From: Bdellovibrionales bacterium
GTDB lineage: Bacteria; Bdellovibrionota; Bdellovibrionia; Bdellovibrionales; JAKFYE01
Assembly: GCA_965206675.1 (NCBI GenBank)
Contig: CBDBKL010000007.1
Span: forward strand, 226,338 to 290,337
Direction: 5' to 3'
DNA: 64,000 nt
Shown: positions 6,020 through 61,674 of the stretch, piece after piece
How the letters are laid out: every line of letters starts with the position of its first letter
Position numbering within the stretch: position 1 is the first letter of the stretch
Made by a program: the position numbers and the translations under genes
Notes under the pieces: model-generated
Seen by the model: only the letters and a program-made list of their open reading frames with translations
Told to the model about the DNA's origin: nothing
Databases searched by the model: none

Positions 6020-6179
6020 GTTTTGAAATATCTGAGAGAGAGCATTTCTAAAGGATTTCAAAACGCAGTTCTCTAAAGCGCAGGGCGTATCCTCGAAGAG
6101 GAGACGAGCCTGCGGCCTTTAGAGCTGTTTGAGGATTTGGAAGCCTTTAGAAATGCTCTCTCTCAAAGACGTTCAAAAA
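6020..6179 (-). repeat. Family-2 rod-hairpin repeat, copy 2A (core inverted relative to 2B/2C)
   Basis: Perfect 22-bp outer arms at 6033-6054 and 6144-6165. Inner core GCGCAGGGCGTATCCTCGAAGAGGAGACGAGCCTGCG is homologous to the reverse complement of the 53.8-kb and 61.6-kb cores. Confidence 0.85.
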
Positions 6180-6326
6180 CTTTTGTAAGACTATCTGTAC
6201 TCTTGGGTATGCCTCAATCGCTCCTTATTAGTTTTTATCAAAATCTACGCAAATAGAGTTAGCCTTCGATTTTTTTAGCGATATGACAAATATATATTAT
6301 GAACGATAAAGAGAAAAGACGTCTCT

Positions 6327-14690: not shown

Positions 14691-15614
14691 ATGAGTTTAG
14701 AAGCTCGGGTTTATAAACGTTTAAAACCATTAAAAAACAGTTCAATTCTTATTGCTGTTTCTGGTGGTCGTGATTCGATGGTTCTGTTGGACCTATTGCT
14801 TCGCATTCAAGAAGGATTGGGGTTAAAAATTTCTGTTGTACACTGTCATCATGGACTGTGTTCTGATAAAAAAGTCGGTAAATATAGAGATCAAACCTGC
14901 TTTTTTGTTGAAAAAAAATGCATCTTTCTCAAAGTTCCTTTTTTTCTTGTTATGAATAAAGAAAAAGAATTGAGGTCAGAAGCAGAGATGCGTGCTTTTC
15001 GTATCAAATCTTATAAGAATGTTTTAGAGGAGCAAAATAGAGATTATATTTTCTTAGGCCATCACTGGGAAGATCAGCTAGAAACACGCTTAATACAACT
15101 TATCAGGGGAACGGGGAACTTAAAAGCTATGAAATTTTCTTCTCCGCCTTATATTCGTCCCTTTCTCACTGAAAGGATAATGGCCCTTAAAATGTACGCT
15201 GAACACCATCAAGTTCAGTGGGTGGAGGATCCGAGTAATCAAAATGTACAATTTTTAAGAAATTGGGTAAGATATAAGTGGCTAAAAGACTTAGAAGGTG
15301 AAAGAACTGGGGGAGTTGAAGCTCTTGGTCGATCTTTGGAACTTATTGCCAACATGTCTTATAAATATGAGCAAGAAGATAGGACACAGTTAGATCGCAA
15401 TTTGGATAGAAAAAAATTTATGTCTTTAGAGAGTGATATGAGAAGGAATGTTTTACACAAATGGCTGACGGGACGGGGATTTAGCTCATTTACCTTTTCT
15501 CAAATTGAGGAAGCTTTAAAACGCTTAAATCATTCTGCAAAAGAGAGTACATTTTATATTGGAGGGTGTCGCTGGACTATTGATGTACAACATATTAGAG
15601 TGGATCGGAATTAG
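14691..15614 (+). CDS. tilS: tRNA(Ile)-lysidine synthetase
   Basis: PP-loop VSGGRDS. Located upstream of ftsH, as is usual. Confidence 0.85.
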   Translation: MSLEARVYKRLKPLKNSSILIAVSGGRDSMVLLDLLLRIQEGLGLKISVVHCHHGLCSDKKVGKYRDQTCFFVEKKCIFLKVPFFLVMNKEKELRSEAEMRAFRIKSYKNVLEEQNRDYIFLGHHWEDQLETRLIQLIRGTGNLKAMKFSSPPYIRPFLTERIMALKMYAEHHQVQWVEDPSNQNVQFLRNWVRYKWLKDLEGERTGGVEALGRSLELIANMSYKYEQEDRTQLDRNLDRKKFMSLESDMRRNVLHKWLTGRGFSSFTFSQIEEALKRLNHSAKESTFYIGGCRWTIDVQHIRVDRN

Positions 15615-15639
15615 TCATCAAAGTCGATGACGTTTTTTT
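15614..15639 (+). terminator. rho-independent terminator-like hairpin after tilS
   Basis: GTCATC-AAAGTC-GATGAC stem-loop followed by G and T7. A fragment of it (AAAGTCGATG) is duplicated at 15851-15860. Confidence 0.5.
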
Positions 15640-15741
15640 GATTCGTATAAAGGAGGACTGTCGAAAAGGTATCAGATACGAGGCGTTCAAGCTCAAACCG
15701 AACGCAGGCGTAGTTTTTCCTACGTCGGAGTGAGTGTTTGA
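15638..15741 (+). repeat. Family-1 repeat, copy 1a (3'-truncated, lacks closing arm)
   Basis: TTGATTCGTATAAAGGAGGACTGTCGAAAAGGTATCAGATACGAGGCGTTCAAGCTCAAACCGAACGCAGGCGTAGTTTTTCCTACGTCGGAGTGAGTGTTTGA aligns to 1c. Confidence 0.85.
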
Positions 15742-15845
15742 TTTGTATTAGGAGGACTGTTGAAAAAGTGCCAGATACGAGGCGTTCAAGTTCAAATCGA
15801 ATGAAGGCGTAGTTTTTCCTACGTCGGAATGAGCTTTAATTGATT
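15738..15845 (+). repeat. Family-1 repeat, copy 1b (3'-truncated, more diverged)
   Basis: Joined to 1a through TTTGATT microhomology. Same block order, several substitutions. Confidence 0.8.
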
Positions 15846-15868
15846 ATAATAAAGTCGATGGAATTTTC

Positions 15869-16010
15869 TTGACTCGTATTAGGAGGACTGTCGAAAAGGT
15901 ATCAGATACGAGGCGTTCAAGCTCAAACCGAACGTAGGCGTAGTTTTCCTACGTCGGAGTGAGTGTTTGAGTGATTGCAACGAAGTAGATGATACCTTTT
16001 CGACAGTCCT
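15869..16010 (+). repeat. Family-1 repeat, copy 1c (complete; reference copy)
   Basis: Perfect 21-bp outer arms at 15884-15904 and 15990-16010 (AGGACTGTCGAAAAGGTATCA). Central hairpin GGCGTAG-TTTTC-CTACGTC. Confidence 0.9.
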
Positions 16011-22729: not shown

Positions 22730-23155
22730 ATGGAACGGACAACTTTAAATTCTACAAAAGATCTTTGTCATTGGACTGAAAAATTCATAAATCGCTTAGG
22801 AACTAAGGATCTTATATTATTATCTGGGCCCATGGGAGTGGGGAAATCGGAATTTGTTAAATCGTGTTTAAAGTTATGGGATGTGGAAAATACGTGCTCA
22901 CCAACTTTTGCTATTCATAATATATATACAACGTCTCATAAGGGTGTTGTTGATCATATAGATTTATATAGATTAGAAAGCGAGACAGATTTAGAGTCTA
23001 CAGGTTTTTGGGATATCTTTGAAAAACCAAAAGGTACTGTTTTTATAGAATGGGCTGATCGGTTAAAAGTTAACTGGTCCCCTCAAGAATGGACTGTTTG
23101 GAATATAAGCCTTGAGTTTTTAAACGGAGATAAAAGAACTTTGACTTTAAGTTAG
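22730..23155 (+). CDS. tsaE: tRNA t6A37 biosynthesis ATPase TsaE
   Basis: GPMGVGKSEF P-loop, SPTFAI motif, ~140 aa. Confidence 0.85.
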   Translation: MERTTLNSTKDLCHWTEKFINRLGTKDLILLSGPMGVGKSEFVKSCLKLWDVENTCSPTFAIHNIYTTSHKGVVDHIDLYRLESETDLESTGFWDIFEKPKGTVFIEWADRLKVNWSPQEWTVWNISLEFLNGDKRTLTLS

Positions 23156-23283
23156 AATCTATCCCAACTTTGTGATGAAAACGAGTGAGAGGTAAGGATA
23201 AAGCAAAAAAGGCGTGCTTGGGGTACCATTGAGAGTGTTTTTTAATCGGGTGCCATCGCTGTCGTTGGTTTTGGGATGAGTTC
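23155..23283 (+). repeat. Family-3 repeat, copy 3b (complete; reference copy)
   Basis: Imperfect terminal inverted repeats GAATCTATCCCAAC...GGTTTTGGGATGAGTTC. Fills the convergent gap between tsaE and the 23289 gene. Confidence 0.8.
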
Positions 23284-34026: not shown

Positions 34027-34719
34027 ATGATGTTTTTTCATTCTCTTGAGAAGCACTTAAAGTACCACTTTTTAAGTGAGGAGTTAGCTCTTACAGCTTT
34101 AACACATAAGAGTTATAAAAATGAAAAGAAAATAGCCTACGATAATGAGAGATTAGAGTTTCTGGGTGATTCTGTTTTATCGACAGTATTAAGTGAGTTG
34201 CTTATGAAAATTTATCCTGAAATGAACGAGGGAGAATTATCGAAGATGCGTGCCCATTTAATCAATGAGCGTTTCTTAGCAAAAATTGCAAATCAACTTG
34301 ATCTCCAGAGCTATTTAAAATTAGGTCATGGGGAAACACTTTCAGGTGGTCATTTAAAACCGCGGTTGTTGGCTTCTGCTTTTGAAGCGTTAATTGGAGC
34401 TATTTATTTAGATGGTGGATTTGAAAAAGCAAGGGATGTTGTTCATTTTATTTTTAAAGATAAAGTGAAAATACCCAAATTTGAAGAGAAAGAGGATTAT
34501 AAGACATACTTACAGGAAATGACGCAAAAAAAATATGATAAAGTGCCTACTTATAAAGTTTCAGAAGAGAGTGGTCCTGAGCATGAAAAAGTATTTTCTG
34601 TAGAGTTATATTTAGACAGCAAAGTTTTAGCCAAGGGTTCTGGAACAAGTAAGAAGCGTGCTGAGCAAGCGGCTGCTAAAATAGCTATTTTAGATTTAGA
34701 GGGTAAAAATGAGTTATAA
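34027..34719 (+). CDS. rnc: ribonuclease III
   Basis: ERLEFLGDSVL signature and C-terminal dsRBD. Confidence 0.93.
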   Translation: MMFFHSLEKHLKYHFLSEELALTALTHKSYKNEKKIAYDNERLEFLGDSVLSTVLSELLMKIYPEMNEGELSKMRAHLINERFLAKIANQLDLQSYLKLGHGETLSGGHLKPRLLASAFEALIGAIYLDGGFEKARDVVHFIFKDKVKIPKFEEKEDYKTYLQEMTQKKYDKVPTYKVSEESGPEHEKVFSVELYLDSKVLAKGSGTSKKRAEQAAAKIAILDLEGKNEL

Positions 34720-35602: not shown

Positions 35603-36935
35603 AGTGATTATTATAGGTCGACCCAATGTAGGAAAATCTTCTTTGTTCAACATATTGACAAAATCTCGTAAAGCTTTGGTAAAAAATCAGCCAGGAGTGA
35701 CTAGAGATTTGCAATATGGTCAATCTGAGTGGTGTGGTAAAACATTTAACGTGATTGATAGTGGGGGATTAACTTTTTCAAAAGATATATTTTCTGACTT
35801 AATTAGAGAGAAAGTTAAATCTTTTATAAGCGATGATATAGAAGCTATAATATTTATGTTGGATTATAAATCTGGAATCTGTGCGGAAGATAGAGAAATT
35901 TTTAAAATCATTAAAAAAACGGGAAAGCCATTTATTATCGCTTTGAATAAGATTGATAGAGCTGAGGAATTTGAAAGTGCAAAATATAATTATTTTGAAT
36001 TTGGTCAATCTATTGAAAGTCTTTCTTGTGAGAGGCGTTGGGGCATTGAGAATTTATTAGATTGGGTTGTTAAAACATTACCCGGTCAAGAGAAAGAAGT
36101 TTTGAAAACTGATGATAGAATAACGTTATCTATTATAGGGAAACCAAATGTAGGAAAGAGTTCTCTTTGCAATTTTTTATTAGCTGAGGAGAGAATGCTT
36201 GTTTCCGATGTGGCAGGAACAACTGTTGACACTATTGCTTCTGAATTTGAGTTTAAGAATAAAAAATACAGATTATTTGATACGGCGGGAATCAGAAGAA
36301 AGGTGAAATCTGATTTAGAGATACTGATGACAATAAAGTCAAAAGAATCTTGGGAGAGATCGGATATTGTATTGCTTATCATAGATGGATTGGAGGGGCC
36401 TTCAGATCAGGATGCTCATCTGGTTCAATTAATTTTAGAAAGTCATAAAACAGTTATTTTAGTTGTTAATAAGGAGGATTTAGGAAGACAGCAGATTTCG
36501 GAATTTCGTAAAACCATAAGGGAAAAGATCAGTCAGGTTTTTCATTTCTTCCCTGATATTCCTATTTATTTTATCAGTGCCAAAACAGGTTCTGGTATTG
36601 AAAAGATGTTCCAGGGTATTCAAGCGCATTGGGAGAAAATAAACGTAAAGATAAAAACATCGGAACTTAATAAGTTTTTCTCTAATACGATAAGGTTAGC
36701 TCCTGCTCCTGTCTATGGTGTAAAGGATGTAAAGTTTTACTATTTAACACAGACAAAGCAGAGACCTCCTAGTTTTATTGCCTTTGCGAATTATCCTGAT
36801 GGAGTTAATCTTTCTTATCGTCGTTTTTTATCAAAGAAGATAAAGGAGAAGTGGAATTTAGATGGAATTCCTATAAGGATATTTGCCATGGAGCATCGAA
36901 AGAAAAATACTCTTAATTCAAAAAACATGATGTAA
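35586..36935 (+). CDS. der: ribosome-associated GTPase Der (EngA)
   Basis: Two tandem GTPase domains (GRPNVGKSSLFN, GKPNVGKSSLCN). Confidence 0.93.
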   Translation: MKLENKVIIIGRPNVGKSSLFNILTKSRKALVKNQPGVTRDLQYGQSEWCGKTFNVIDSGGLTFSKDIFSDLIREKVKSFISDDIEAIIFMLDYKSGICAEDREIFKIIKKTGKPFIIALNKIDRAEEFESAKYNYFEFGQSIESLSCERRWGIENLLDWVVKTLPGQEKEVLKTDDRITLSIIGKPNVGKSSLCNFLLAEERMLVSDVAGTTVDTIASEFEFKNKKYRLFDTAGIRRKVKSDLEILMTIKSKESWERSDIVLLIIDGLEGPSDQDAHLVQLILESHKTVILVVNKEDLGRQQISEFRKTIREKISQVFHFFPDIPIYFISAKTGSGIEKMFQGIQAHWEKINVKIKTSELNKFFSNTIRLAPAPVYGVKDVKFYYLTQTKQRPPSFIAFANYPDGVNLSYRRFLSKKIKEKWNLDGIPIRIFAMEHRKKNTLNSKNMM

Positions 36936-36949
36936 GCAATCAAACTTTC

Positions 36950-37086
36950 TTGATTCGTATTAGGGGGACTGTCGAAAAGGTGTTAGCTACGAGGCGTACA
37001 AACCGAACGAAGGCGTAGTTTTTCCTACGTCGGAGTGAAGGTTTGAGTGATTGCAACGAAGTAGATGACACCTTTTCAACAGTCCT
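36950..37086 (+). repeat. Family-1 repeat, copy 1d (complete, short-core subfamily)
   Basis: Same architecture as 1c, with GAGGCGTACAAACCG in place of GAGGCGTTCAAGCTCAAACCG. Fills the convergent gap der/OMP and ends 2 nt from the OMP stop. Confidence 0.88.
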
Positions 37087-37088
37087 AG

Positions 37089-37832
37089 CTAAAAGGATGT
37101 GCCGATGAATCCGAGCAAAGTTATAGCATCTCCGGGAAGTAGGAGTCCTGTCGGGCCTGTTTCAAGCCTAATGGGTTCAATTTCGTCTTCAATAGAAAAA
37201 TATTTATAAGTTCCTTCAAACCCTAAAAATATAGATCGCGATACGGGAAATTCAACTCCTGCTCCCATGGATACACCTGTTGCACTTTCTGTGTTTGTAC
37301 TAATGGAAGAGGGTAGTGAAAATGTTCTCCAAAATTGTAAAAAGTTAAACGTAACATAAGGATTTAATGGAGCTAATCCACGAGTCATGTTTTGAGTGTT
37401 AAAGAAATATTTTATCCCCAATGTAAAGTCATTTGAAGAGATATTTCCATTTTCTGGTATAGGACTTCCTCTTAAGTCAAATTCATGGTTGGAATAAACA
37501 TAGGATATATGTAAAGCTAATTTTAAATTAAAAAAGTAGGAAAGGAAAAACCCAATAGGTACATTTGGACGCCAGGCTTGGCCTAAGCGTTTAGTAAAGT
37601 ACTTATACCCTGATGCAATACCAATTTCGAAAAATCTTCCATGTCTAAAAAAATGTATATCTTCTTCTTCCTCAGCATCACCTTCAAAATCTGAATAATC
37701 GGTGAAGGGGTCATAAGCATCGATATTATAATCAGCAGGTTCATCTTGTCCTGACTGTGCTAAAAGAATAGAATTTGCTGAAGCCGAGTTTAAAAAGAAA
37801 ATAGTGAATACCAAGAAAAATAATCTTGTCAT
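37089..37832 (-). CDS. outer-membrane beta-barrel (OmpA-beta/porin-like) protein
   Basis: Signal peptide ending ANS, an acidic linker, alternating strands and a C-terminal F. Confidence 0.55.
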   Translation of the reverse strand: MTRLFFLVFTIFFLNSASANSILLAQSGQDEPADYNIDAYDPFTDYSDFEGDAEEEEDIHFFRHGRFFEIGIASGYKYFTKRLGQAWRPNVPIGFFLSYFFNLKLALHISYVYSNHEFDLRGSPIPENGNISSNDFTLGIKYFFNTQNMTRGLAPLNPYVTFNFLQFWRTFSLPSSISTNTESATGVSMGAGVEFPVSRSIFLGFEGTYKYFSIEDEIEPIRLETGPTGLLLPGDAITLLGFIGTSF

Positions 37833-40304: not shown

Positions 40305-40697
40305 ATGAATATCATAAGAGTTTTAATTGCTAAACCTGGGTTAGATGGACATGATCGGGGAGCCAAAGTTGTTGCCCGTGGTTTGCGTGATGCGGGATTT
40401 GAAGTTATCTACACAGGGCTTCATCAAACCCCAGAGATGATTGTTTCGGCAGCCTTAGAAGAGGACGTTGATATTATTGGCCTCTCAATCTTAAGCGGAG
40501 CCCATATTCCTTTGATTCAATCCATTCAAGAACTGATGAAAGCAAAAGGGTTTGAAAAACCGATCTTTGTAGGTGGTATTATACCTGAGAATGATGCGGA
40601 GCGACTGCGCCAATCCGGCGTAAAATCTGTCTTTGGTCCAGGGACATCATTGAGTGAAATTGTGGATAGAGTGAAATCTATCGTTAAAGAATCATAA
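40305..40697 (+). CDS. cobalamin-binding subunit of a split acyl-CoA mutase (methylmalonyl/isobutyryl-CoA mutase small subunit)
   Basis: [14 protein letters not shown] (DxHxxG B12 motif). 130 aa, stand-alone. Confidence 0.85.
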
Positions 40698-40711
40698 AAA
40701 ACTTTCTGTCA

Positions 40712-40812
40712 TTGACTGTGTTGCAATTGTTTTTACTCCGACGTAGGAAAAACTACGCCTCCATTCGTTTTGTACGCCTTGTATCTAACATTTTTTCAGC
40801 AACCTTCTTATA
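40712..40812 (-). repeat. Family-1 repeat, copy 1e (inverted, degenerate, no closing arm)
   Basis: The reverse complement reads ATAAGAAGGTTGCTGAAAAAATGTTAGATACAAGGCGTACAAAACGAATGGAGGCGTAGTTTTTCCTACGTCGGAG... Confidence 0.75.
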
Positions 40813-41044
40813 TAGACATTAATTATTAAAATGTAGAAAAAGCTAATCTGCTAAGGAAAGTCTAGCCCTTCTTTTTAATATAGGAAGATATGGCTAATGA
40901 AAAATTGTGTTTGAGACACGAGACACTAATGCTTCAAAAGGATATCATTCTCTAAAATCTGAAATTTCGATGAGCTTTAACATAAAAGTTTTAGATTTTA
41001 GAAATTAAATTTCACACCTATTTTTAATAACTTAGCCTCAAGTC

Positions 41045-41073
41045 TTGACAAACTACTAGTTTTTATGTAGTTT
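41045..41073 (+). promoter_or_regulatory. candidate TA promoter with overlapping operator palindrome
   Basis: TTGACA (41045-41050), 17-nt spacer, TAGTTT (41068-41073). 13-bp perfect palindrome AAACTACTAGTTT (41050-41062) plus a third TAGTTT half-site. Confidence 0.5.
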
Positions 41074-41087
41074 AGAGAGAGGCAGGG

Positions 41088-41414
41088 ATGGCGGTTAAAA
41101 AAATAGATTACTATGTTACTGAAAATGGCAAGGAACCCTTCCTTGAGTGGGTTAATAGTTTGGACATTGCTAGTCAGATTAGGGTTGACCGTTTTATCCA
41201 AAGAGTTGCTCAAGGCGGTGCTAAAAAGTCGATTAGAAGTTTAAAGAATGGTGTTTTTGAAATTAAAATTCCTCATGGATCTGGATTGAGAATATATTTT
41301 GGAGAAGTTGGAAACAAGTACATTCTTCTTTTAGTTGGTGGAGATAAAGGAACTCAAAGTAAGGACATTAAAAGAGCTAAAGAATATTGGAGTAATTATG
41401 GCAAACAGAAATAA
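41088..41414 (+). CDS. higB: type II toxin, RelE/HigB-like 'addiction module killer' family
   Basis: ~108 aa. The YVTENGKEPFLEW...GVFEIKI..GLRIYF pattern is typical of the TIGR02683-type toxin. Toxin-first order and a 17-nt overlap with the antitoxin. Confidence 0.8.
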   Translation: MAVKKIDYYVTENGKEPFLEWVNSLDIASQIRVDRFIQRVAQGGAKKSIRSLKNGVFEIKIPHGSGLRIYFGEVGNKYILLLVGGDKGTQSKDIKRAKEYWSNYGKQK

Positions 41415-41712
41415 AAGCTATGATGAAGTATTAGCAAGCAAATTTGAAAATCTTAAGTTTGCTCAAGGTTATTTGCTTAATATAGTTAAAAACGAAGGAC
41501 TTTCTATTGATGAAGCACTTTGCGAAACGATCAAGGCAATGGGGTTACAAAATTTTGCTGATAAATCTGATCTCTCTATCCAGGGAGTTTCGGACTTTGT
41601 TGCAAAAAGGCAGAAATGGAGTACAGATAAACTTTCGAAGCTCATTAACGAAGTCTTTAAGTTAAAAGTTAAACTGATTTTAGAAGTTCCAAAATCAAGC
41701 GAGGTCGCTTGA
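41398..41712 (+). CDS. higA: HTH antitoxin, HigA-like 'addiction module antidote' family
   Basis: ATG 41398 (MANRNKSYDEV...). ~104 aa with an HTH-like centre. Paired with the upstream toxin. Track start 41335 lies inside the toxin gene. Confidence 0.75.
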   Translation: MANRNKSYDEVLASKFENLKFAQGYLLNIVKNEGLSIDEALCETIKAMGLQNFADKSDLSIQGVSDFVAKRQKWSTDKLSKLINEVFKLKVKLILEVPKSSEVA

Positions 41713-42014
41713 ACTAGAATTTCTATATTATTATATTTAATCATAAATTTATTTTGTTTTTTATTCTTATTCTTATTGAGGAACAAAGGAGGTGGTAAAT
41801 ATATCAATAGTTATTAGTTGTACTCATGGAAAAAAACTGGAAAAAGGATATTAGAAATGCTCTGTAAAAATATTACCCCATCTTTTGTCTGGATAGCTAT
41901 TGGAAAAAATTCTCTCCTAGATATTCAATTTTTTTTCCAGAGCGCAGAGCGTATCGTGAGAAAGAGCAAGTTAATAATCAAACATAAAAGAGAAAATCGC
42001 ATAAAGAGCCAGAC

Positions 42015-42132
42015 GGACTTTTCAAAAAGCGTTAGATACGAGGCGTTCAAGCTCAAACCGAACGGTTTTTCCTACGTTGGAGTGAAGGTTTGAGTGATTA
42101 CAACGAAGTAGATGACGCTTTTTGAAAAGTCC
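42015..42132 (+). repeat. Family-1 repeat, copy 1f (complete arms with compensated sequence; central hairpin partly deleted)
   Basis: Arms CGGACTTTTCAAAAAGCGT / ACGCTTTTTGAAAAGTCCG form a perfect 19 bp. The core GATACGAGGCGTTCAAGCTCAAACCGAACG is conserved. Confidence 0.85.
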
Positions 42133-42183
42133 GCAGATACAATTAGTTGATTGTATAGCGGAGTTTATGTAACCATATAGGGT

Positions 42184-42837
42184 ATGGATCAAGATTTATT
42201 GTTAAAAATACCATTGTATTTTATTCCCTTTCTTTTCTCTCTGACATTTCATGAGTATGCTCATGGATGGATGGCTTTAAGACGTGGTGATAACACAGCC
42301 TTAATGTTGGGAAGGTTGTCTTTAAATCCCTTAGCTCATGCCGACCCTATCGGGACCTTTTTCTTTCCTTTAATTGCCATTATTATGCCCGGAGGATATT
42401 TTTTTGGTTGGGCTAAACCTGTTCCAGTCAATCCCAGAAATTTAAAGAATGAAAGAGTCGATATGTTTTGGATTGCGGCAGCAGGACCACTTTCCAATAT
42501 TCTTTTAGCTATCATAGGAGCATTTGTCTACGTGATATTAAATGGGCATATTGAAAATCTAGGACGGGCAGAGGTCGGAGAAGGTTTTTTCGGAGTGTTT
42601 ATCTTTATAAATCTTTTATTGGCAGTTTTTAATTTGATTCCGCTTCACCCTTTAGATGGAGGAAAAATTTTAGCACGTTTTTTACCTCATAATATCAATT
42701 ATCTTTTAGAACGGAATCAACATATTACAGGTATTGTCTTACTTGTGCTTCTTTTTACAGGTGGTTTAAGGTATATTATTTATCCTGTTTTTTATTCAGC
42801 AAATATTTTAATTTACGCAGCAGAATCTATTTTTTAA
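42184..42837 (+). CDS. site-2 protease family membrane zinc metalloprotease
   Basis: HEYAHG zinc site, NLIPLHPLDGG motif, polytopic. Confidence 0.8.
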   Translation: MDQDLLLKIPLYFIPFLFSLTFHEYAHGWMALRRGDNTALMLGRLSLNPLAHADPIGTFFFPLIAIIMPGGYFFGWAKPVPVNPRNLKNERVDMFWIAAAGPLSNILLAIIGAFVYVILNGHIENLGRAEVGEGFFGVFIFINLLLAVFNLIPLHPLDGGKILARFLPHNINYLLERNQHITGIVLLVLLFTGGLRYIIYPVFYSANILIYAAESIF

Positions 42838-52005: not shown

Positions 52006-52081
52006 TGGCATCCCCTACGGGAGTCGAACCCGTGTCTTCACCGTGAAAGGGTGATGTCCTAGGCCACTAGACGAAGGGGAC
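52006..52081 (-). tRNA. tRNA-Glu (anticodon UUC), CCA encoded
   Basis: The reverse complement GTCCCCTTCGTCTAGTGGCCTAGGACATCACCCTTTCACGGTGAAGACACGGGTTCGACTCCCGTAGGGGATGCCA folds as a cloverleaf. Anticodon loop CTTTCAC. Confidence 0.95.
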
Positions 52082-52098
52082 AGTTCCTTATAATAAAG

Positions 52099-52176
52099 TG
52101 GTGAGCCGCCTTGGACTCGAACCAAGGACCCTCTCCTTAAAAGGGAGATGCTCTAACCAAACTGAGCTAGCGGCCC
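52099..52176 (-). tRNA. tRNA-Lys (anticodon UUU), CCA encoded
   Basis: The reverse complement GGGCCGCTAGCTCAGTTTGGTTAGAGCATCTCCCTTTTAAGGAGAGGGTCCTTGGTTCGAGTCCAAGGCGGCTCACCA folds as a cloverleaf. Anticodon loop CTTTTAA, 10-nt D-loop. Confidence 0.95.
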
Positions 52177-52229: not shown

Positions 52230-52232
52230 TAA

Positions 52233-52361
52233 GAGCCTATCCAAACTTGGTGATGAAAAAGAGCGAGAGCAAGGATGAAAGTAAAAAAGCCGTGCTGGGG
52301 ACATATTTTGGGGATATTTTTTAACTGGTGTAATCATCATCGTTGGTTTTGGGATAGGTTC
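52233..52361 (+). repeat. Family-3 repeat, copy 3c (complete)
   Basis: GAGCCTATCCAAACTTGGTGATGAAAAAGAGCGAGAGCAAGGATGAAAG...GGTGTAATCATCATCGTTGGTTTTGGGATAGGTTC. Lies between the purA stop and tRNA-Lys. Confidence 0.8.
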
Positions 52362-53709: not shown

Positions 53710-53757
53710 TTAATGAGTGTGTCAATACCTAAGATTTTATAATTTTAGAACATTACA

Positions 53758-53949
53758 AAGGGAGTTTTTTTCAGAGGGGTTCAAAAGCTCAGACAGTTCT
53801 GAGGGTTCGCAGCTCGTCTCTCCGCCAAAGGTTAAAACAGTAACTAGATAAAATTTGATTCAGTTAAACTTAAGAAAAACGGTTTCTAGCGGAGATACGC
53901 CCTGCGCCTCAGAAAACTCGTTTTGAACCCCTCTGAAAAAAACTCCCTT
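53758..53949 (+). repeat. Family-2 rod-hairpin repeat, copy 2B (with 63-nt apical insertion at 53826-53888)
   Basis: Perfect 29-bp outer arms AAGGGAGTTTTTTTCAGAGGGGTTCAAAA and its reverse complement. Core identical to 2C up to the apex. Confidence 0.88.
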
Positions 53950-53979
53950 CTTAACGCAAAAAAGAAAAATGGAACTTCC

Positions 53980-54115
53980 TTAATTCGTATTAGGAGGACT
54001 GTCGAAAAGGTGTCAGATACGAGGCGTACAAACCGAACGAAGGCGTAGTTTTCCTACGTCGGAGTGAAGGTTTGAGTGATTGCAACGAAGTAGATGACAC
54101 CTTTTCAACAATCCT
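53980..54115 (+). repeat. Family-1 repeat, copy 1g (complete, short-core subfamily)
   Basis: Near-identical to 1d. Its right arm (to 54115) contains the last three sense codons and the TGA stop of the 54105-55052 gene. Confidence 0.88.
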
Positions 54116-55052
54116 GGTACCATTTTTCTGTGGGTGGTAAGTGCCATTTTAGTTTTTTGTGTTTTAAGTAGTGGGTGATAGATTCTATGGCATCGGAAGT
54201 GGATCGTTGAAATGCTGTTTTTGTCTTAGCGGCACAGTGAGGGGTTAAGACAACATTTTTTAATTTAAGAAGTTTAGAATTGGAATCTAACGGCTCGTTT
54301 TCAAAGACATCAAGTCCTAATCCCATTAACTCTCCTTCCTTTAAAGCCATAAGAACGTCTGCCTCATTTAATAATTCTCCGCGAGATGTATTGATAAGGT
54401 AGGTCGTGTCTGGGATCCAATTTAGAGTTTTTTTATTAATGAGTTTTCTTGTTTTTTGAGTTAGAGGGAGATGAAGGGAAAGTATATCACTTTGTTTACA
54501 AACCTCTTCTAAACCGAAGCGTTGGACATTGGATTTTAAAAAATCAACTTCTTCTACGTAGGGATCATAGGCTATAACTTTCATTCCAAAACCTTGAGCC
54601 ATAGATGAAACCTTTTTTCCAATACGGCCAAACCCAATAATACCGAGTGTTTTTTCAGATACCGTTTCACCTAAAGGATGGCGAGCCGCCTTCCAATCTG
54701 TATTTTTTAAATTACGTTCAGGGATTTTTTTTATACAATTGAGAATAAGAGTCCATGTGTGTTCGGCAACACTGATAACATTAGATTCTGGCGTGTGACC
54801 TAAGAGAATGCCTCTGCTTTGTGCAAGATTTAAATTTATATGGTCAAAGCCACTTGTTGCAGTGATAATCAGTTTAAGATGAGGAAATAAATTTAAAAAA
54901 TTTTCTTCTACAAAAGTTTCGGTTCTTAAAACAAGACCATCTATATCTTTATAAGGTTTTGAAAGATCACGAATTTTTATAGATTTAATACAATTATGTT
55001 GAGGAATGGTTTCTGGAAATTTTCCTATCCATCCGATGGTTAATGAGTCCAT
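54105..55052 (-). CDS. D-isomer-specific 2-hydroxyacid dehydrogenase (phosphoglycerate dehydrogenase-like)
   Basis: GIIGFGRIGKKV NAD-binding site and the catalytic R/E/H pattern (TSRG, DVFENEP, TPHCA). Confidence 0.85.
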   Translation of the reverse strand: MDSLTIGWIGKFPETIPQHNCIKSIKIRDLSKPYKDIDGLVLRTETFVEENFLNLFPHLKLIITATSGFDHINLNLAQSRGILLGHTPESNVISVAEHTWTLILNCIKKIPERNLKNTDWKAARHPLGETVSEKTLGIIGFGRIGKKVSSMAQGFGMKVIAYDPYVEEVDFLKSNVQRFGLEEVCKQSDILSLHLPLTQKTRKLINKKTLNWIPDTTYLINTSRGELLNEADVLMALKEGELMGLGLDVFENEPLDSNSKLLKLKNVVLTPHCAAKTKTAFQRSTSDAIESITHYLKHKKLKWHLPPTEKWYQDC

Positions 55053-61370: not shown

Positions 61371-61530
61371 AACCCTTTCAAAATGATGAAATAAATAACC
61401 ATAAGCTTTTTCGGAAAAATTGGAGGGAAAATTAAAATAAAAAGGGATAAGGAAGGATTCAGACAGTTTCAAAGGTCACAAGTTCGTCTACCTCACTTTC
61501 ATTCGGTATACGTTCTTGCTTTGAAAACCC

Positions 61531-61674
61531 GAAAGAGAGAACTTTTTTTTTTAAGACTGAAAAAAAGCTCAGACAGTTCTGAGGGTTCGCAGCTCGTCTC
61601 TCCCTTCGGGAGATACGCCCTGCGCCTCAGAAAACTCGTTTTTTACAGTCTTAAAAAAGTTCTCTCTCTCTTTC
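61531..61674 (+). repeat. Family-2 rod-hairpin repeat, copy 2C (reference copy)
   Basis: Outer arms GAAAGAGAGAAC-T10-AAGACTG / CAGTCTT-A6-GTTCTCTCTCTCTTTC. Core GCTCAGACAGTTCTGAGGGTTCGCAGCTCGTCTCTCCCTTCGGGAGATACGCCCTGCGCCTCAGAAAACTCG. Confidence 0.88.

Follow-up and report, generated by a model that had tools for sequence, protein, structure and literature searches.

In a textbook MITE, the transposase binds at the terminal inverted repeats, which are also the best conserved parts of the element. Correia elements are co-transcribed and their hairpins are cut by RNase III, and REP sequences and REPINs are mobilised by RAYT transposases (IS200-like HUH enzymes). Here we describe Family-1, a short non-coding hairpin repeat in a window of 64 kb (the whole stretch of DNA that was analysed) from an uncultured Bdellovibrionota-like bacterium with ~35% GC. 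In its architecture the repeat is closest to Correia/NEMIS and ERIC. It resembles the Correia/NEMIS elements of Neisseria in size (100-155 bp), in its long terminal inverted arms and nested-palindrome fold, in having length subfamilies that arise from internal indels and in its location at gene ends, and a Correia-like co-transcription and RNase III cutting may apply to Family-1 as well. It differs from them in that it lacks the TA duplication, includes a leader of ~30 nt in the unit, has arms that are less conserved than the core and belongs to another phylum; we know of no sequence similarity between Family-1 and the Neisseria elements. The likeness to ERIC/IRU concerns an imperfect palindrome of ~127 bp that is intergenic, transcribed (in the case of ERIC) and present in internal insertion/deletion variants, but the host lineage is another one and blastn found no sequence similarity in E. 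coli genomes.

Like REP sequences and REPINs, the copies of Family-1 are intergenic hairpins without a target duplication that form BIME-like head-to-tail clusters and in which structure seems to outweigh terminal sequence. The unit, however, is 3-5 times longer than a REP, and the apical hairpin GTAG...CTAC that the two have in common is a 4-nt coincidence at best. Integron attC sites (e.g., the Vibrio cholerae repeats) are also similar, being imperfect palindromes of 60-140 nt that abut upstream stop codons and conserve structure over arm sequence, and one Family-1 locus flanks a toxin-antitoxin cassette. In contrast to attC sites, Family-1 has neither R''/R' core sites nor co-oriented cassette arrays, lies mostly between housekeeping genes and is not accompanied by intI in the window; an assignment to attC was rejected because the core sites RYYYAAC and GTTRRRY are missing at its ends. 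In a PATE derived from IS200/IS605, separate subterminal hairpins at the left and right ends and insertion 3' of a constant target of 4-5 nt would be expected; Family-1 has one long hairpin. As in MITEs, the copies are small (100-160 nt), non-coding and multiple (seven in the window), and their presence is polymorphic at four places (tilS-ftsH, der/omp, B12/M50 and the 3' end of pdxJ); compared with the textbook MITE, Family-1 lacks a target-site duplication, has a one-sided leader and has a core that is far better conserved than the arms. Since the defining features of the named families that were tested fail or stay undecided, we file Family-1 under the general kind only: it is a previously undescribed family of small palindromic intergenic repeats that belongs to no named family.

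Copies and anatomy of the repeat

Family-1 is present in seven copies over five intergenic loci (Table 1), at the places given in the original prediction, and no others were found in the 64-kb window by an nhmmer profile or a covariance model. The covariance model, built from four full hairpins, recovers the same seven copies as the profile, and the core motif TTTTCCTACGTYGGARTRA (19 nt) has seven matches when up to two mismatches are allowed, all of them exact (expected number 0.01, from 100 shuffles). In the repeat scan the copies fall into overlapping families. Together they amount to ~900 nt, i.e., ~1.4% of the window, and only four are of full length (1c, 1d, 1g and the variant 1f); 1d and 1g are 95% identical.

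Table 1. Positions of the Family-1 copies and of associated features in the window
Feature	Position	Strand	Description
tilS 3' flank	15614..15641	+	immediately downstream of the tilS stop; terminator-like hairpin GTCATC-AAAGTC-GATGAC, then T7 (terminator scan)
Copy 1a	15632..15741	+	leader, left arm and core; right part missing
Copy 1b	15741..15860	+	leader, left arm, core and degenerate right part to GATGG; no right arm
Copy 1c	15852..16010	+	full length; leader 15852-15883, hairpin 15884-16010, perfect 21-bp arms
Copy 1d	36938..37086	+	full length, short-core subfamily
Copy 1e	40702..40817	-	inverted, degenerate
Cargo between 1e and 1f	40818..41996	+	RelE/ParE-type toxin 41088-41414 and overlapping downstream ORF 41335-41712
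Copy 1f	41997..42133	+	arm-variant; leader and arms diverged, arms still fully complementary
Copy 1g	53968..54115	+	full length, short-core subfamily

The unit of ~150 nt consists of a one-sided leader of ~30 nt (consensus AATGGAACTTTCTTGATTCGTATTAGG, strongly diverged in 1e and 1f), followed by an interrupted hairpin of 121-127 nt. The hairpin comprises, in this order, an outer stem of 21 bp whose ends read AGGACTG...CAGTCCT, a 3-bp extension, middle stems that are short (CAAACC/GGTTTG) and, at the apex, a 7-bp hairpin, GGCGTAG/CTACGTC, one of whose pairs is G.T. The middle stem and the central hairpin are present as predicted, and so are the perfect outer arms of 1c (21/21). The conserved leader had been predicted too, but only as a short prefix; it is longer (~30 nt) and part of the unit, so that the full copies start near 15852, 36938 and 53968. 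Every dispersed full copy carries this leader outside its left arm, and the inverted arms therefore seem not to bound the repeated unit. That the leader is a degenerate half of a right arm is no more than a lead, as the resemblance was significant only for the 1a flank and not for 1c, 1d and 1g.

Two subfamilies can be distinguished, in agreement with the original prediction, by a 6-nt indel, TCAAGC, which is present in 1a, 1b, 1c and 1f and missing from 1d, 1e and 1g. Copy 1f has in addition an 8-nt deletion that takes out half of the central hairpin. A coding function had been excluded on the grounds of indels of 1, 8 and 9 nt; the sizes seen were 1, 6 and 8 nt, but the conclusion holds, because stops occur in all six frames of all copies, which supports the non-coding nature independently of the indels and rules out a coding function.

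At the tilS-ftsH locus, 1a and 1b are right-truncated units that form a head-to-tail array with 1c. The junction between 1a and 1b is a TTTGA microhomology, and the end of 1c lies 28 nt before the start codon of ftsH; the corresponding distance from 1f to the start codon of the M50 peptidase gene is 50 nt. The terminator-like segment upstream of 1a also aligns locally with the right-hand portion of a unit like 1f (AAGTCGATGACGTTTTTT versus AAGTAGATGACGCTTTTT, 16/18, with a score reached by 0 of 500 shuffles), and this remnant is a second place with a 1f-type arm.

When folded as plus-strand RNA, the full copies reach -50 to -70 kcal/mol (z -5.6 to -9.0 against shuffles), which bears out the design of a dispersed, non-coding nested palindrome of the MITE/ERIC/Correia type, the likeness being architectural only. 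The plus-strand RNA is 4-11 kcal/mol more stable than that of the minus strand because of G.U pairs; as DNA, the folding z ranges from -4.4 to -9.6 and the strands differ little. No consensus of a sigma-70 promoter or an intrinsic terminator was found within the unit, and near it the only exception is the hairpin before 1a. A sigma-54 promoter in the leader was rejected by inspection, since the spacing and the GC dinucleotide are wrong.

Conserved core and covarying arms

Between 1f and 1c, 15 of 42 positions differ in the arms and 12 of 17 in the leader, but only 4 of 77 in the core (Fisher p = 3e-5 for arms versus core). REPINs show the opposite arrangement, with conserved arms (two inverted REP units of 20-40 nt) and a variable spacer. 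Six pairs of the outer stem show compensatory double changes, a number matched by 0 of 500 shuffles and by no slid control, although five of the six stem from the single copy 1f and there are only four full-length copies. Two features thus fall outside the usual MITE logic, i.e., a core that is conserved while the arms co-vary, and a leader on one side only. The first of them would point to recognition of the folded hairpin together with a sequence-specific core; alternatively, the arms may have been corrected with the hairpin as template while the core was homogenised.

Distribution in related genomes

The best named relatives are distant: for TilS and for a membrane protein they were Oligoflexia and Bdellovibrionales bacteria with only 34-38% identity, and a genome scan for close relatives based on Der returned only unrelated genomes (~40% identity). 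Three assemblies with syntenic DNA were available for comparison: a 1.82-Mb contig (ERZ24894574 ctg6886l; loci L002 and L015) with ~80% DNA identity to the window, and two Logan short-read assemblies, SRR23238833 (loci L001, L016, L024 and L025) and SRR23258159 (loci L021, L022 and L023), each with ~92% identity to the window and ~95% identical to each other.

None of the three sites that can be compared is filled in the 80% relative. Its tilS-ftsH spacer has 33 bp, its der and the convergent outer-membrane gene share a 4-bp overlap without 1d, and its B12-binding and M50 peptidase genes are separated by a 275-bp spacer with no repeat; neither nhmmer nor the covariance model found Family-1 in 42 kb of this genome. 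The 92% strains contain the tilS-ftsH array, with two contigs that stop 49 and 72 nt into 1a and another that begins within the right arm of 1c (57/57 nt identical). Copy 1g is present in these strains as well, again with a contig that stops in the core, and in SRR23238833 its right arm carries 5 substitutions and a 3-nt indel. Copy 1d is absent (in SRR23258159, a 138-aa ORF lies between der and the outer-membrane gene instead), and so are 1e and 1f. Conversely, SRR23238833 has an extra, partial minus-strand copy after pdxJ (in L025), which the window lacks. As copies occur in the contigs of relatives, the family is not restricted to the window. The 138-aa ORF (L023 4741-5157) contains internal RQRQLKAV...RRSEERI repeats and has no match in Pfam.

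Because sites that are filled in some relatives are empty in others, Family-1 is lineage-specific and insertion-polymorphic. As expected of a mobile or recently mobile element, its sites turn over on the time scale of species divergence. As all three outgroup sites are empty, with genes that abut or overlap, insertion in the lineage of the window is more parsimonious than at least three independent precise losses. The identity between 1d and 1g (95%) is above the genome identity of the 92% strains to the window. Altogether, four short-read contigs of the relatives end inside a Family-1 repeat, the expected effect of a multi-copy sequence on short-read assembly; by extrapolation, the copy number may be high across the genome. 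No consistent direct repeat flanks 1c, 1d, 1f, 1g or the copy in L025, their boundaries being uncertain by a few nucleotides, and the flanks diverge at the pairs of filled and empty sites compared. A tetranucleotide common to the sequences before the leaders of 1a, 1c, 1d, 1f and 1g was not found, and five loci are too few to exclude one.

Gene ends and genomic context

The genome is compact and each copy occupies a tiny spacer. Copy 1d fills the entire gap between the stop of der (36933-36935) and the stop (37089-37091) of the convergent outer-membrane beta-barrel gene, and the right-arm end of 1e abuts or overlaps the stop codon (40695-40697) of the B12-binding-domain gene. The right arm of 1g holds the stop and the last codons (YQDC) of the minus-strand 2-hydroxyacid dehydrogenase gene (54105-55052), whose ortholog in SRR23238833 is one codon longer, and the copy after pdxJ provides the TAG stop of that gene. 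TilS (14691-15614; L001 10001-10951; L022 8504-9454) has 307 aa in the window and 316 aa in both Logan strains; these strains have GAG where the window has TAG, which lets their tilS frame pass the terminator-like hairpin and end within the Family-1 leader, at a TGA. TilS, Der and the B12-binding protein differ from their counterparts in the relatives at the C-terminus, beginning exactly at the junction. Where Family-1 replaces the 3' end of a gene, the stop codon comes from the repeat.

The orientation of the copies relative to neighbouring transcription is mixed, so that no single role at the RNA level is indicated. Four of the five loci are in plus orientation, five loci being too few for a test of strand bias. 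Almost all 2-kb bins of the window (1-64000) show a positive GC skew, and the whole of it is probably part of a single replichore whose leading strand is the plus strand. The window encodes RNase III (34027-34719). No transposase (a Y1 enzyme of the RAYT type included), integrase or recombinase was found among its ORFs of at least 120 aa; most of these were scanned against Pfam, and for the rest the precomputed Pfam matches of their syntenic counterparts in the relatives were used.

The spacer that separates the B12-binding and M50 peptidase genes is a hotspot of variable cargo (40697-42184 in the window; L015 5683-5959, empty; L021 1330-5896). In the window, the toxin encoded between 1e and 1f is of the RelE/ParE type (TIGR02683), and the overlapping ORF, which has no family match, presumably encodes the antitoxin; this cargo is missing at the matching site in both relatives. 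In SRR23258159, the spacer instead contains genes for a TIR-domain protein and for a type III Res-like helicase (PADLOC REase_III, E = 2e-270). This strain and the window become homologous again exactly at the terminal GTCCG of the 1f right arm (its last 5 nt), and the left boundary has no Family-1 element.

Searches for known and related sequences

The original prediction regarded the sequence as unrelated to ERIC, Correia/NEMIS and Rickettsia RPE elements, and no match to a described family was present in Rfam or in the DNA collections searched. The exact core pattern had no match in 185,579 species genomes, the JGI metagenomes or IMG/VR. A second interior pattern gave one chance match in a coding region (JGI metagenomes) and none in IMG/VR, and three single matches of an arm pattern in IMG/VR were noise as judged by the nhmmer score. 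With blastn in "distant" mode, no Family-1 match was obtained in 5,426 complete E. coli genomes, plasmids and phages, and the arm sequence alone had no match in plasmids. A longer element with the same arms (AGGACTGTCGAAAAGG-type ends) was found neither in the window nor in IMG/VR or plasmids. Rfam gave no match to Family-1 at the gathering thresholds (the best sub-threshold score was 18 bits, compared with gathering values of at least 40), and only two tRNAs passed in the window. When concatenated six-frame translations of five copies served as a query for spurious ORFs in other assemblies, nothing scored. Full-text literature searches returned no Family-1 sequence strings and nothing relevant on Bdellovibrio and MITE or on the run accessions. 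As far as these searches show, no dispersed repeat family had been characterised before Family-1 in this uncultured, small-genome Bdellovibrionota-like lineage. In practice, the repeat breaks short-read assemblies, gives housekeeping genes new 3' ends and stop codons, and provides a marker for strain typing.

Mode of spread

The best explanation, which we consider probable though by no means certain, is that Family-1 is a non-autonomous, non-coding mobile hairpin repeat that is mobilised in trans and is confined to one small, uncultured clade of Bdellovibrionota-like bacteria. It has spread into the very short spacers that lie at the ends of genes, close relatives differ in which of its sites are filled, and its copies decay by truncation, internal deletion and the formation of head-to-tail arrays. 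Movement would depend on an enzyme encoded elsewhere in the genome. As the arms co-vary, the core is constant and the unit extends beyond the arms, such an enzyme would be more likely to recognise the folded hairpin and the core (an enzyme of the HUH/RAYT or IS200-IS605 style, or a recombinase) than two TIRs of the DDE type. After insertion, the repeat may be co-transcribed with neighbouring genes, and the transcript would form a long imperfect RNA duplex, including the 21-bp outer stem, as a putative substrate of the host RNase III or a barrier at the 3' end; cutting or blocking would probably take place at this outer stem.

The conservation pattern could also be accounted for if the copies were functional structured RNAs (stabiliser or processing elements in 3'-UTRs or intergenic regions, or small-RNA genes) that are kept by selection and are not selfish DNA. 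The core is far better conserved than the arms and leader, the changes in the arms are compensatory, the RNA of the plus strand folds better by 4-11 kcal/mol, and the copies lie at gene ends in a genome region that also encodes RNase III. Yet three of the seven copies have lost a stem (the right arm in 1a and 1b, half of the apical hairpin in 1f), their orientation to the flanking transcription is mixed, a promoter or terminator consensus in or beside the element is seen only in the hairpin before 1a, and Rfam has no match; moreover, the sites are absent from relatives in which the operons are otherwise syntenic and intact. We regard this alternative as unlikely. A purely passive origin, in which the repeats are duplicated locally, recombined or copied by gene conversion but served by no enzyme of their own, and in which strain differences reflect loss and not gain, would agree with the head-to-tail array between tilS and ftsH, whose junctions lie at TTGA microhomologies, with the lack of a target duplication and of a transposase in view, and with a homogeneous core, which gene conversion could yield. 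It is harder to reconcile with five unlinked loci across 38 kb, each precisely in a tiny spacer, with the three empty outgroup sites out of three, for which insertion is more parsimonious than repeated precise loss, or with copy 1d, which resembles the distant 1g at 95% identity and yet is absent from a close strain; we therefore hold it to be very improbable.

The cargo hotspot bears on another alternative, in which the repeats are DNA recombination sites, similar in function to attC or to the att sites of islands, that mark or mediate the exchange of accessory cargo and of which the solo copies are leftovers. The inverted pair 1e/1f, with the right arms pointing outward, brackets a RelE/ParE toxin-antitoxin cassette that is missing in the relatives, the same spacer of a 92% strain holds the TIR-domain and type III Res-like helicase genes, and homology resumes exactly at GTCCG, the end of the right arm of 1f; arms that are conserved in structure and variable in sequence are also typical of sites that recombine as folded single strands. 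However, cargo is present at only one of the five loci in the window, the others lying between housekeeping genes, the flanking copies are inverted and not direct, the ends lack GTTRRRY/RYYYAAC core sites, the window has no integrase, the relative lacks an element at the left boundary, and a deletion endpoint inside the arm accounts equally well for the GTCCG remnant. This alternative appears very unlikely to us, and we retain a non-autonomous repeat mobilised in trans as the preferred reading. A structure-recognising enzyme or a link to a hotspot of defence and toxin-antitoxin genes, if true, would be of mechanistic interest; otherwise Family-1 is one more intergenic repeat.

Other repeats in the window

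A second hairpin repeat, Family-2, occurs at 6033-6165 (minus strand), 53753-53954 (plus) and 61531-61674 (plus), with a half-copy at 61453-61493 and a copy in the 80% relative (L002 18108-18238), where, in contrast, Family-1 was not found in 42 kb; it has no match in Rfam. Its cores are 75-100% identical (100% between the copies at 53.8 kb and 61.6 kb), its outer arms of 25-34 nt are unrelated between copies and self-complementary within each, and 25 of 50 predicted pairs covary among four sequences. The copy at 53.8 kb carries a 67-nt insertion (53824-53890) exactly at the position of the CTTCG apical loop of the copy at 61.6 kb. At the orthologous site in SRR23258159 (L022 1-60, compared with 6033-6216 of the window), the core is reversed between the same arms, which is consistent with an inversion between the inverted arms, and in SRR23238833 (L001 1500-1560) only an arm fragment is left, as a result of either deletion or assembly collapse. 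A 7-mer shared by Family-1 and Family-2 (CGTATCT) was discarded as a link between the two, since it is expected by chance.

A broader reading would unite Family-1 and Family-2 in a class of hairpins that are handled as folded single strands, the core being read by sequence and the outer stem kept as structure. Such hairpins would also serve as recombination or boundary sites for defence and toxin-antitoxin cargo, as parts of a mobilisation or cassette-capture system that is undescribed in Bdellovibrionota and driven by a putative HUH-type enzyme or recombinase. We think this quite unlikely.

A third repeat is represented by two non-coding copies of 130 nt (23154-23283 and 52232-52361) with 72% identity and no match in Rfam. 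One copy lies after tsaE; the other is flanked by purA and a pair of minus-strand tRNA genes (52009-52176).
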